From NCBI GenBank assembly GCA_048937405.1, contig JBHLNF010000007.1, positions 32,001 to 96,000 on the forward strand: a stretch of 64,000 nt of DNA, given 5' to 3'. Within the stretch, counting starts at the first letter, position 1; each line of letters begins with the position of its first letter. Source of the stretch: Promethearchaeota archaeon (GTDB lineage: Archaea > Asgardarchaeota > Lokiarchaeia > Sigyniarchaeales > SOKP01). Below the pieces are notes generated by a model. The model was not told the DNA's origin. It was given only the letters and a program-made list of their open reading frames with translations, and did not search any database. A program made the translations under genes and the position numbers. This document shows, piece after piece, positions 40,457 through 47,242 of the stretch.

Positions 40457-40609
40457 TTGGCTCCAGTAGATAAAGAACTTCAAGAAGAAATTAAAAAAGG
40501 TGTAACTCTTCAAAAAGTTGATGAAGCAGAATTAAAGAGACGTGAAGAAGAAAAAAAGAAACGTATGGAAGAATTAGAAAAAGTAAAAGCAGCTCTAGGT
40601 GAAAAATAA
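40457..40609 (+). CDS. 50-aa WH2-like peptide (not in ORF track)
   Basis: MAPVDKELQEEIKKGVTLQKVDEAELKRREEEKKKRMEELEKVKAALGEK; AGGTG SD at 40442-40446, TTG start, T-rich tract after the stop. Confidence 0.8.
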   Translation: MAPVDKELQEEIKKGVTLQKVDEAELKRREEEKKKRMEELEKVKAALGEK

Positions 40610-43289: not shown

Positions 43290-43913
43290 ATGAGTCCGAT
43301 AATTACACATCAGGATGAATTAATCTTAGCGAAGACTGAGAAGGAATTAGTCTCCCAATTTAAAAAACTAGCTAAATTACAAAGCACTCTTATAGATTCC
43401 CAGAAAAAGTATGCAGAAAATCTAACTAGAGCAAATATTTTTAGAGATATGCTAAATCGAACTTTTAGAGATGTATTAAAACAAATGGAAACTCTTGCTC
43501 GAGAACATAGATCAAATATTAAGGATGAAGAGGTTAAGTTATATAGAGAAATAATCCAAAAAAATGACGATTTCATAAAAGATAATAATGCATACCTAAA
43601 TGCAATTAAAGATGTTACGATACAAAAAGAATACTTAGTTCAAAAAAAAATAGAATTTGCCGATGCCTTAGCTAGTGTTGCAAGTAGAAGATCAACTGTA
43701 ATTAGAAAAGCTTTGAATGTTGAAAAAGCGAAAAACAAATTAATCGATGGTGATAAATTAAACATTCTCGACCAACAACTTAATGATGTTCAAAGAGATT
43801 TTGATAGAGCACGAGATATATTATTAAAAAAAATATATCAGTTTGTTGAAGTAAGAGATGAGATTAATACCTTGTGGATCAAATTAAAAGATACTATAAC
43901 CGAATTAAGTTAG
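43290..43913 (+). CDS. All-helical BAR-domain-like protein
   Basis: 207 aa, three long amphipathic helices, basic tip VEKAKNKLIDGDKL followed by QQLNDVQRDFDRARDILLKKIYQF; GGAG SD. Confidence 0.6.
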   Translation: MSPIITHQDELILAKTEKELVSQFKKLAKLQSTLIDSQKKYAENLTRANIFRDMLNRTFRDVLKQMETLAREHRSNIKDEEVKLYREIIQKNDDFIKDNNAYLNAIKDVTIQKEYLVQKKIEFADALASVASRRSTVIRKALNVEKAKNKLIDGDKLNILDQQLNDVQRDFDRARDILLKKIYQFVEVRDEINTLWIKLKDTITELS

Positions 43914-44039: not shown

Positions 44040-44501
44040 ATGTGTGCCGAAGAATTTGCAAGCTTCTTAGATAGTACTCGAAAAGCGCCATTGGAAGAAA
44101 AACTGAATGCATTTGGCGATATCATTGAAAAAATTATGTCAATTGTTTTACGCATACCAGATTTAGTAGATCAGTCTCTTGGTTCTGTAAATGATAAAGT
44201 ATCAAATTTACAAAATCAAATAAATTCTTTAAATAGCCAAATAACATCTCTACAGTCTAGATCAGGGGTAACTCCAACGGCATCCGCTCCAGCGGCACGT
44301 ACCCCAGGCGGTCCTCCAGGAGGCCCTCCAGGATCTCCACCACCAACACCAGGTGGTCCACCAGGTGGTCCACCAGGCGGTTCAAGAGGACCTGGTGCTC
44401 CACCCGGTCCTAGTCGTCCTGCAAGTCCAGTTTCGCTTAGAGGTGCTATAATGGGAGAACTTAAACAGTTGTTTGCAAAGAGAAAGAGCCAATCTGGCTA
44501 A
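44040..44501 (+). CDS. Coiled-coil + Pro/Gly-rich linker + C-terminal amphipathic helix protein
   Basis: Heptads KVSNLQNQINSLNSQITSL; PGGPPGGPPGSPPP...; SLRGAIMGELKQLFAKRK. Confidence 0.85.
   Translation: MCAEEFASFLDSTRKAPLEEKLNAFGDIIEKIMSIVLRIPDLVDQSLGSVNDKVSNLQNQINSLNSQITSLQSRSGVTPTASAPAARTPGGPPGGPPGSPPPTPGGPPGGPPGGSRGPGAPPGPSRPASPVSLRGAIMGELKQLFAKRKSQSG
44347..44382 (+). repeat. 12-bp coding tandem repeat (CACCAGGTGGTC, about 3 copies) encoding PGGP units
   Basis: Read directly; locally GC-rich. Confidence 0.8.
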
Positions 44502-44697: not shown

Positions 44698-46449
44698 TTG
44701 GAACCAACAAAAGAGAGATCCGTTAAAAGTGCTAATGTTAGAGTCGCCCATGACTTGCAAAGACAGATATTAGAAATGACTTCCTTTTTAAGAGTCATGA
44801 ATAATTACTATAAAAAAAAAATAGAGCTTCAAAATCGAGTAAAACCATTTATTCAAAGAATGTACAAAGGGGAATTAAAAGAAATTAATGAAAATGAATA
44901 TTGGCTTTATACGATACCACTTGCTTTAAATGTGCTGAGTAAAGCTTTTTTAAATAAAGAAGATTCGTTTAAATTTCCTGATAGCATTATTTTATTTGAA
45001 GCATGGATGCATTTAGGTATTAATGCACTGTATCCTCGAATTGCGCTTCAATTTCAATTTCCAGGATTATTTAGAGGTGAAAAAGTAAGGAATATTTTTC
45101 AATTTATTTATTCTACTTCCCGTGGATTTGGCTTTCCAATGAATTTTGGACCAGAATTCTATACTTATAAACCCAAGCTGGCTCGTATTCTGGATCCATT
45201 ATTAAGATGGAGTTACACCGTATGTCATCGAGCTAATCAAGCAATTTTATTAGGAAATAAACTTTTAAAATCTAAAAGACATCATCCAGGTGATTTTGAA
45301 TCAGTTATAATATCCGAATTTACTAATCATATATTTAAAGGAATTGATACAATCTTACATGGATATTTTAAAAATGAAGCAAAAGATTTAGATAAATTTT
45401 CTTCCTTAAACGATCTCCTTTCAAATTCTACTTTTTATTATTCTATTGGAGATCATGCAATGAGAATTGAAAGTGATAATTTAAACAAAGTTTTATCTAT
45501 TCCTTTAGTGACTCATGAATTTATAGTAAAAAAGTATGCGGTTGACTTCAAATTTTACGTTAAAACCCTCTTAGAAGTAAATAAAATGTTAATAAAGAAA
45601 ATAAACTATTACAGAGAACTGAGGAATAATCTTATCAGAAAATTAAATAAGAAAGACAAAGTTAAATTAAGGACTGAACAATCAAAGCATTTTGCGAAAA
45701 AAATTGCTAGAATGTCCCGAAAACTTTCGAAGAAATATCCAATTATTGATATTTATAGCCACAATAAAACATTATTAGAAAAAATTAGGGAACTTTTATT
45801 TACTACACCAATCTATATGCACGCAAGTCAATTTCCTGAAAATTCTCAAACAAATTCTAATAAATTATCTAAAAGTAGAGAAAAAATTGATAGAATTAAA
45901 AATAAATCAGTAGACTCAATTTTATTATTATATATTAAAAAATTTGAAAAGAATCATAATTTTAAATTTGAGGAAGAAGAAGTTTTAGATGAACTGGAGG
46001 GATTACATAATATTATCACTAAAATGTGGATAGCATTTAAAGAAAATCATTTTAGATTTGCAATGAATAAATTAAATGCATTATCAACGCTTGGTATATA
46101 TGAAAAGAATTATAAAATTAAAATTAATGAACTTTTAGATGAACTTCTTCCTATTTTAGCCATTTATGAGATGTTTAACAGACCATTATTTGAATCAGTA
46201 TATCCAGAGTCGATTCCACAAACTAAAAGACTTGGAACATATTTTGCTCGTTTTTTAGCATCAAAATATAACCTTTTTGGTACTAATTTAATGAAAATAA
46301 TCAATAGATTAGCTTTTCATAATTGGAGTTACCTCATAATTAAGAAACAAATGAATAGGAGAGAATTTTTTAACTATCTTCTGAAATTGCCAATCTGGAA
46401 ATATATTCCCTCAAAAATAAAAACACGAATAATTGAACAAAATAATTAA
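44698..46449 (+). CDS. Hypothetical helical protein
   Basis: 583-aa ORF, no motif recognised. Confidence 0.75.
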   Translation: MEPTKERSVKSANVRVAHDLQRQILEMTSFLRVMNNYYKKKIELQNRVKPFIQRMYKGELKEINENEYWLYTIPLALNVLSKAFLNKEDSFKFPDSIILFEAWMHLGINALYPRIALQFQFPGLFRGEKVRNIFQFIYSTSRGFGFPMNFGPEFYTYKPKLARILDPLLRWSYTVCHRANQAILLGNKLLKSKRHHPGDFESVIISEFTNHIFKGIDTILHGYFKNEAKDLDKFSSLNDLLSNSTFYYSIGDHAMRIESDNLNKVLSIPLVTHEFIVKKYAVDFKFYVKTLLEVNKMLIKKINYYRELRNNLIRKLNKKDKVKLRTEQSKHFAKKIARMSRKLSKKYPIIDIYSHNKTLLEKIRELLFTTPIYMHASQFPENSQTNSNKLSKSREKIDRIKNKSVDSILLLYIKKFEKNHNFKFEEEEVLDELEGLHNIITKMWIAFKENHFRFAMNKLNALSTLGIYEKNYKIKINELLDELLPILAIYEMFNRPLFESVYPESIPQTKRLGTYFARFLASKYNLFGTNLMKIINRLAFHNWSYLIIKKQMNRREFFNYLLKLPIWKYIPSKIKTRIIEQNN

Positions 46450-46466
46450 ATACACTTTAATACGTA

Positions 46467-47045
46467 TTAAAATTCCAAAAATCCAGGATCATCAAAAATA
46501 TCATCGATTTTACGCTCTTTTTTTATCTTGGTCTCACTTTCAGCAAATAAGGATTCTTCATCAGTACGAACTCCACGTTCTAATTCTTCGGTATCTAATT
46601 TTAAGATTGTATCCTTTTCTAATTTCTTGTATTCTTCGCCTTTCATTTTCCAGTTATTAACTTCATCTAAATTAACATCTTCTTCTTCTAATAATACAGC
46701 AGCTTTAGTTTTACAAAGATCCGATAAAATAGAATAAGCTAAAGCTAATTCACCCCATTCGTGATCTTCTTTTAATCTTTTTATTCTTTTCTCTAATCTT
46801 TGTAATTCTTGATCAGCATAGTAAATATCAATAAAATCTCCGAATGCATCTACAGGTTCTGAAATTGAATTAACTAATACTTCTTTAGTTAAATCGCAAT
46901 TTCCGCATTTCACCGTAGCAAAAGCACCTTTCTTCTTAATATCAGTTACCTTGACGCTCTTTTCACCACATTCTGGACAGGTAAAGATTTTTGGCACTCG
47001 CTTTACACGTTTAGGAGAAACTTGTTTACGTTTTCTTCTTCCCAT
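46467..47045 (-). CDS. elf1: Transcription elongation factor Elf1 with long acidic C-terminal extension
   Basis: MGRRKRK...PKIFTCPECG...CGNC...EPVDAFGDFID. Confidence 0.9.
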   Translation of the reverse strand: MGRRKRKQVSPKRVKRVPKIFTCPECGEKSVKVTDIKKKGAFATVKCGNCDLTKEVLVNSISEPVDAFGDFIDIYYADQELQRLEKRIKRLKEDHEWGELALAYSILSDLCKTKAAVLLEEEDVNLDEVNNWKMKGEEYKKLEKDTILKLDTEELERGVRTDEESLFAESETKIKKERKIDDIFDDPGFLEF

Positions 47046-47242
47046 TATTATCACTACTAATGTCTAAAAAAATAGATCTTTATTCCATTAGAATATAGAT
47101 AAGGAAAACTAAAATATTTTTGCTTTTATGTTAAAAACTTCGAAGGAATTAGTAAAATTTTTTAGGAATGTTTTATTATTTTACTTACTCTTTTTTACTG
47201 AAATGTTTTAGCAGTTTTAATTATAAGGAGTGGATTTTAGGC

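Follow-up and report, generated by a model that had tools for sequence, protein, structure and literature searches.

Our analysis establishes that the gene examined here encodes a real, expressed and ancient Asgard protein in which an oligomerising coil is followed by a disordered tether rich in Pro and then by an end helix under strong sequence constraint, and that these parts belong to a toolkit common to small GTPases and a gelsolin protein. As judged by sequence comparison, the protein is no homologue of VASP, WAVE or WASH and resembles such actin regulators in layout only. No description of the family was found in the literature searched. We tentatively favour, while giving it rather less than an even chance, a role as a dimeric cortex adaptor whose end helix would anchor it to the membrane or to a BAR-like coat, within an Asgard toolkit of GTPases, BAR proteins and actin regulators.

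The window (the whole stretch of DNA that was analysed, 64,000 nucleotides) is part of a contig (C25) of a 4.47 Mb genome. The coordinates of the ORF, both protein termini and the Pro/Gly tract, as given by an earlier sequence-only reading of this DNA, were confirmed on the sequence. The gene and the parts of its product are as follows.

44040..44501, + strand: whole gene for the coil, tether and end-helix protein, 153 aa plus stop (ORF list and sequence)
44046..44177, + strand: conserved N-terminal helical module, residues 3–46 (invariant residues, AlphaFold2 helices)
44178..44261, + strand: heptad coiled coil, residues 47–74 (3-4 spacing in the sequence; pLDDT about 90)
44262..44414, + strand: Pro/Gly-rich disordered tether, residues 75–125 (pLDDT below 50, GC content)
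44415..44435, + strand: pre-helix motif of the R-P-x-S-P-x-S type, residues 126–132 (conservation)
44436..44498, + strand: C-terminal end helix and basic cluster, residues 133–153 (conservation, AlphaFold2 helix 133–152)

AlphaFold2, run on a 24-sequence alignment, predicts helices at residues 3–14 and 18–74 (pLDDT about 90), disorder over residues 75–132 and a helix at 133–152 (pLDDT 75–80); the monomer pTM is 0.29, so that the mutual placement of the parts is undefined. Model and alignment together bear out the order of coil, Pro-rich tract and conserved terminal helix that had been proposed from the sequence. The N-module is made up of the short helix 3–14, Pro17 and the first half of the long helix, and residues F6, F9, P17, E19, K21, F25, G26, I28, E30, M33, L37, I39, D41, L42 and D44 are invariant in the 24 sequences. 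The coil that follows has L47, V50, V54, L57, I61, L64, I68 and L71 as its core, in four canonical heptads; given that Val or Ile at position a with Leu at d favours a parallel dimer under established coiled-coil rules, this pattern suggests that the coil makes the protein a dimer. The tether is 45–60 residues long (median in close homologues 48 aa, with 40% Pro and 22% Gly), and its coding DNA is, as had been noticed, GC-rich within AT-rich surroundings: GC is 0.649 over 44265–44435, a stretch that runs about 20 nt past the tether part as delimited above, against 0.316 in the N-terminal part and 0.279 in the whole window. A collagen-like reading of the Gly-Pro tract was rejected because Gly does not occupy every third position. 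Within the pre-helix motif R126, P127 and P130 are invariant and A128 and S132 nearly so, and the core of the end helix (E140, L141, K142, L144 and F145, then K147–K149) is likewise invariant in the 24 sequences.

A near-length search returned 195 homologues, from organisms named as Promethearchaeota or as Loki-, Thor- and Hodarchaeota, every one of them annotated as hypothetical. An alignment of 24 diverse close homologues shows hardly any change in the N-module or the last 28 residues and a variable linker; among the best 120 homologues, 119 carry the end-helix motif, 112 have a run of at least four Pro and none contains Trp, in keeping with the earlier remark that the protein has no acidic-Trp tail. 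The sequence-only reading had staked its case on conservation of the terminal helix, and the helix proves decisively conserved, no other segment being as well conserved across the phylum: L141 never varies, E140 and K142 hardly do, hydrophobic residues are retained at positions 137, 144 and 145, and the helix is preceded by a P-x-x-P-x-S motif and followed by a basic cluster. Long Pro runs are typical of close (Loki-type) relatives; many other lineages are without them, the linker there being only Pro/Ala/Ser-rich. A profile of close homologues placed the gene in 221 of the 399 genomes of the phylum. Distant orthologues that keep the three-part layout were also recovered, and with the broadened profile (A3, close homologues plus these distant orthologues) the gene is present in 229 of 267 genomes at least 85% complete, 61 of 67 genera and 27 of 28 families, the weakest of these matches, near E 1e-5, possibly reflecting the coil alone. 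The family can be called nearly pan-Asgard.

The tail beyond the helix varies among relatives. In the L. ossiferum orthologue and the MK-D1-like one a short, Trp-free poly-Asp tail closes the protein, with six Asp after the helix in L. ossiferum (L104:8800-9258, + strand) and two in the MK-D1-like sequence (L105:8109-8513, − strand), and a distant relative of 326 aa (L102:1351-2328, + strand) adds a second helix and an acidic tail, also without Trp. Two tandem paralogues of the family adjoin in one sister-family genome (L100/L126; G126:C93:50700-51535). An Asgard gene with the same synteny lies on a contig (L064, DATKTW010000134.1) labelled Candidatus Nanopelagicaceae bacterium, and this contig is probably misbinned.

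The protein is not the only carrier of its parts. When 1.84 billion representatives were searched exhaustively, 104 matches came up, longer proteins among them, and a search for longer forms of the family found five proteins, all small GTPases. In the public Arf/RagA-like GTPases P0162, P0185 and P0194 the C-terminal tail consists of a helical part, a Pro-rich linker and the end helix; the Ras-like GTPases P0151 and P0199 carry the N-module plus a zinc ribbon; and in P0148 and P0176 the N-module is joined to a gelsolin domain. That domain is genuine as judged by its matches, which for P0148 reach E 9e-11 against the Lokiarchaeota 2DGel structure 7WHG and about 1e-5 against eukaryotic gelsolins, and for P0176 reach 4.5e-4 against an Asgard gelsolin-like domain. 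The unrelated N-module fusions P0142 and P0151 both end in G-N-W-G-Y-G, which may be another shared terminal peptide.

Within its own genome the end-helix profile picks out four proteins, with the helix at the very C-terminus of each, namely this protein and three paralogous Arf/RagA-like GTPases, whose tails were in the helix profile and whose scores are therefore partly by construction; the next-best ORF scores 8.4 bits (E 0.5).

C19:244689-245921, C7:959786-961039 and C7:206373-207857 (loci L106, L110 and L114): the three tailed Arf/RagA-like GTPases of the own genome (G000)

Pfam assigns Arf and Gtr1/RagA domains to roughly residues 100–300 of these three GTPases, after N-terminal extensions of about 100–130 residues, and the N-module profile also matches two of the three. 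One of them has a run of six Pro. Since the end helix is otherwise found in this genome only on the three GTPase tails, the stand-alone protein looks like a GTPase-less copy of such a tail. An ESCRT-III MIM-type reading of the helix was discarded, no other protein of the genome, ESCRT-III included, matching the helix profile.

Known actin-regulator families gave little. Pfam searches with the whole protein and with its C-terminal 38 aa returned only sub-threshold coiled-coil noise. There is no WH1/EVH1 match in Pfam (E up to 1), the N-terminus being helix-loop-long-helix; no match of Pfam WH2 to the C-terminal 38 aa (E up to 10) and no LKKT-type element in the sequence; and no Pfam match to VASP_tetra, the coil being N-terminal instead. 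The central Pro-rich region with its runs is present (residues 75–125), and of a V (WH2)-C-acidic-Trp region no WH2 was found, with an acidic tail in some orthologues only, lacking Trp. A profile search of the PDB with the family returned only generic coiled coils, the WAVE-complex subunit BRICK1 appearing at an E of 0.5 that is not meaningful, and the likeness of the N-terminus to the WAVE-homology coiled coil, for which Pfam also offers nothing, is not supported by these searches. A VIA fold search of the model found generic long helices only (Z of 6.1 or less), and the named clusters of the ESM Atlas gave no usable match.

The end helix was examined separately with a profile of 18 diverse sequences (A2). 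Searched against the PDB (E up to 10), it found no WH2, WASP, WAVE, VASP or other actin-binding chain, and the supposed WASH/WH2-type element, for which there is no Pfam match either, was not borne out. Against provisional reference peptides, A2 scored 12.5 bits with the Mena FAB, 7.8 with the VASP FAB, 1.9 with the N-WASP C helix, 1.8 with the WASP WH2, 0.2 with the WAVE WH2 and 1.4 with the MinD membrane helix, on a scale where the best unrelated ORF of the own genome reaches 8.4 bits and chance top matches in the PDB reach 12–18 bits. At 0.2–1.9 bits the WH2 and WASP-C likenesses therefore fail. Of the VASP FAB likeness that had been claimed for the last helix, the pattern match is real, and the scores put it at chance level and not beyond. 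The provisional VASP FAB peptide was itself searched against the PDB, from which the segment is absent.

Upstream of the gene lies a co-oriented neighbour whose product may be a partner.

43290..43913, + strand: upstream neighbour, 207 aa, BAR-like three-helix protein, possible partner (AlphaFold2, Foldseek)

As modelled, this neighbour forms a BAR-type three-helix bundle. AlphaFold2 places its helices at residues 7–73, 79–149 and 154–206 (pLDDT 82.8); in Foldseek most of the top 50 matches are BAR domains, at an E of only about 0.02, and they include FAM92A, amphiphysin, endophilin, arfaptin (TM 0.64–0.69) and I-BARs; its Atlas look-alikes are FAM92/BAR clusters, and Pfam returned no match. 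The L. ossiferum orthologue (L118:1495-2112, − strand) is UYP46261.1, or GNAMCCOK_02568, of 23.9 kDa, and the neighbour is accordingly neither the published Bar1 nor Bar2.

Among 80 related loci, homologues of the flanking genes were found in 78 for the 207-aa gene (counted as a homologue within the same ±8 kb locus, direct adjacency having been read only here and in genome G132), 74 for a radical-SAM gene, 69 for pelota, 69 for an Elf1-like gene and 51 for a 583-aa gene. Most of these flanking genes are housekeeping genes, so that the synteny mainly reflects relatedness. In G132, which belongs to another family, the BAR-like gene is adjacent again with the gene order reversed, and this recurrence with inverted order may reflect selection to keep the two genes linked. 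The place upstream of the family gene is taken by the Elf1-like gene in L. ossiferum, MK-D1 and G143, with the BAR-like gene some 400 kb away; the adjacency is absent also in distant lineages, and no neighbour conserved across the whole phylum was found. In 7 of 15 diverse loci a Ras-like GTPase is encoded no more than 8 kb away, such genes being very common in these genomes.

Three further genes of the locus deserve record. The Elf1-like zinc ribbon protein (window 46467-47054, − strand; L. ossiferum L104:8037-8657, + strand) has an acidic C-terminal extension of roughly 120 aa with a conserved G-F-L-E-F end. A micro-ORF of 50 aa (window 40457-40609, + strand) has a WH2-like pattern, hydrophobic-x-x-x-I-K-K-G-x-x-L-Q-K-V, and is conserved, together with its syntenic position, in at least 43 of the 80 related loci; it gave no WH2 match in Pfam or the PDB, the likeness to WH2 being one of pattern alone. 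The downstream gene (window 44698-46449, + strand), whose 583-aa product belongs to no Pfam family, is the one with a homologue in 51 of the 80 loci.

Expression could be read from the supplementary proteome and Lokiactin co-IP tables of bioRxiv 10.1101/2025.11.30.690169 (published as PMC13716822), which we matched to the genome of Candidatus Lokiarchaeum ossiferum (G138). The Elf1-like protein there, UYP45915.1, has a computed mass of 24.03 kDa and is matched by GNAMCCOK_02218 at 24.01 kDa; since locus numbers rise with the coordinates of G138, as a check with Lokiactin indicates, the next gene, the orthologue of the protein described here, is GNAMCCOK_02219. This orthologue was quantified in 16 of 16 proteome samples with a mean log2 of 18.47 (PMC13716822 tables) and ranks roughly 400–460 in abundance, Lokiactin being 59th and the BAR-like GNAMCCOK_02568 46th. 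The Lokiactin co-IP enriched one profilin, five gelsolins and an Arf GTPase (PMC13716822); the Elf1-like GNAMCCOK_02218 is enriched in it at log2FC 1.36 (P 0.007) and the BAR-like GNAMCCOK_02568 appears at log2FC 0.71 (P 0.014), and GNAMCCOK_02219 is not among the rows listed (log2FC 4.5 down to −1.06), after which 841 further rows of the sheet follow. This absence from the listed rows counts moderately against a stable complex with actin and would be compatible with weak or regulated binding. The enriched Arf GTPase, GNAMCCOK_04696 (38.1 kDa), was considered as a carrier of the tail and is not supported as one. When P0162 was used as query in L. ossiferum, its tail region was matched by the stand-alone orthologue only and by no GTPase.

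Considering these findings together, we favour the cortex adaptor for several reasons. The helix lies at the extreme C-terminus after a flexible linker, is positively charged (net charge +4 in this protein, 0 to +4 in the 18 sequences and mostly +2 to +4) and presents a hydrophobic face; in this genome it is shared only with Arf-like GTPases that bear different N-terminal domains, and the longer relatives identified are mostly small GTPases. The BAR-like neighbour, its linkage and the abundance of its orthologue above Lokiactin point the same way, and an orthologue that is expressed yet missing from the listed Lokiactin co-IP rows fits an anchor other than actin. In such an adaptor the coil would pair the protein and may co-assemble with GTPase and gelsolin paralogues bearing the same module; the tether would reach up to about 15 nm; and the end helix would act as the anchor, on the membrane surface or on a membrane-bound BAR-like coat, in the manner of the C-terminal amphipathic helices of septins, MinD or FtsA and of polybasic small-GTPase tails. 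The stand-alone protein, as a tail copy without its GTPase, would then either tether partners to the cortex or be in competition for the same docking sites. A purely lipid-binding helix is made less probable by a hydrophobic moment that is only modest (0.29 here, 0.13–0.46 across the 18 sequences) and by a low mean hydrophobicity (0.06–0.39), and near-invariant Glu and Lys flanking the hydrophobic stripe, in the segment of top conservation, look more like specific protein recognition than lipid binding. Anchoring is further called into question by the heptad-like spacing of the helix core, which would suit helix-helix packing, and by the loss of the BAR-like adjacency in L. ossiferum, MK-D1 and distant lineages.

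The conservation of residues around this heptad-like stripe, charged flanks included, would suit a peptide that docks onto another protein or onto the N-module of the protein itself, a role that we consider rather improbable. The N-module might hold the helix in a WASP-like closed state until a small GTPase frees it, or an effector or regulator common to the Arf-like GTPases might bind the helix, making the stand-alone protein an adaptor or decoy. N-module and end helix are combined not only in the stand-alone family but also in two of the three tailed GTPases of the own genome and in P0162-type fusions, and other fusions have the N-module but lack the helix, which points to separable parts with distinct roles; against docking, the AlphaFold2 monomer (pTM 0.29) gives no sign of a confident N-to-C contact and no neighbour is conserved across the phylum. 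Very improbable, in our estimate, is a link to transcription or nucleic acids, to which the nearby Elf1-like gene and the HHH-like N-terminus of P0194 could point. The family gene is immediately preceded by the Elf1-like gene in L. ossiferum, MK-D1 and G143, the distance here being about 2 kb, and the GTPase paralogue P0194 matches HHH_5 at E 9e-4, below cutoff; against this, the Elf1-like linkage is confined to one order, the protein has no nucleic-acid-binding domain and the surrounding block is a housekeeping mix.

An Ena/VASP-like but non-homologous actin factor is, we think, an unlikely alternative, yet one to be reckoned with. In such a protein the coil would provide multivalency, the Pro tract would recruit profilin-actin or serve as a spacer and the end helix would bind F- or G-actin, the product being a filament tether, a bundler or an elongation aid, possibly the missing Asgard assembly factor. 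The layout fits, as do the runs of at least four Pro in 112 of 120 close homologues, and the Mena and VASP FAB peptides (12.5 and 7.8 bits) stand beside 8.4 bits for the best unrelated ORF of the own genome; these scores are, for all that, within the chance range for large databases, the FAB sequences used were provisional, and there is neither a WH2/LKKT-type element nor any signal in Pfam or the PDB. A true gelsolin domain is found fused to the N-module (P0148 against 7WHG), the syntenic block holds the BAR-like gene and the conserved micro-ORF with its WH2-like pattern, the family is pan-Asgard, as are actin, profilin and gelsolin, it is about as abundant as actin regulators, and the literature names no Asgard filament polymerase (PMC9433394; PMC13716822). 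An actin factor of this kind should, on the other hand, be reconciled with an orthologue not among the listed co-IP rows, in which one profilin and five gelsolins are enriched, with the many lineages without long Pro runs, with a helix common to the tails of Arf-like GTPases, and with the behaviour of Asgard profilins: those of Loki and Odin did not bind a VASP polyproline peptide, and Heimdall LC3 and a Thor profilin bound weakly (PMC8410842). A bolder version, which we hold rather doubtful, would make the protein the long-sought Asgard factor for actin assembly or tethering, with multivalent coil, polyproline and FAB-like helix, and would have the GTPase-fused paralogues couple Arf-like switches to Lokiactin. 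If true, it would amount to a pre-eukaryotic counterpart, convergent or ancestral, of GTPase-controlled machinery of the Ena/VASP or WASP type, beside a BAR-like membrane-shaping partner.

Asgard archaea crawl and form dynamic protrusions built on Lokiactin, with profilins and gelsolins as the only known regulators; according to reviews and primary papers no nucleation or polymerase machinery has been found in them, and no membrane-actin linker so far (PMC9433394; PMC13716822). A protein that is small, abundant and near-universal, that has its parts in common with GTPases and gelsolin and that has a BAR-like neighbour is placed where such a membrane-actin linker would be expected. Should the end helix bind actin, this would be the first archaeal analogue of GTPase-controlled actin assembly; should it bind the membrane or a BAR coat, it would define the route by which Asgard GTPases without a lipid anchor reach the cortex. 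In either case the family, unannotated as it is, offers biochemists an inexpensive and clearly delimited target in those organisms that stand nearest to the ancestor of eukaryotes.

Finally, among known systems Ena/VASP proteins are like this one in that a coil for oligomerisation is combined with a Pro-rich tract and a short amphipathic helix of basic character, and the FAB was the only eukaryotic actin-binding motif tested to rise above noise against the Asgard helix profile. Unlike them, the protein has no EVH1, no WH2-like GAB and no detectable sequence homology, its coil is N-terminal rather than C-terminal, and the listed Lokiactin co-IP rows do not include its orthologue. With the WASP family (WAVE, WASH and N-WASP) it shares the order of helical N-module, polyproline and C-terminal helix, the involvement of GTPases, fused here rather than bound, and a short acidic tail in some orthologues, whereas WH2, a WHD/WAHD signal and, in the 120 best homologues, Trp are lacking. 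C-terminal membrane helices and tails, such as those of MinD, FtsA, septins and the polybasic small GTPases, likewise place a terminal basic amphipathic helix or tail after a flexible linker, and septins have the order GTPase, coil and helix that is seen in the Arf-like paralogues here; the present helix is far more constrained in sequence than membrane-targeting helices, with its near-invariant Glu, and has a lower hydrophobic moment than the FtsA helix. ARL13B-type Arf-like GTPases consist of a GTPase, a coiled coil and a Pro-rich C-terminus. In contrast to these, the protein described here has no GTPase, and the likeness of the tails is one of domain order alone; that order recurs in the three tailed GTPase paralogues, of whose tail this protein is a copy.
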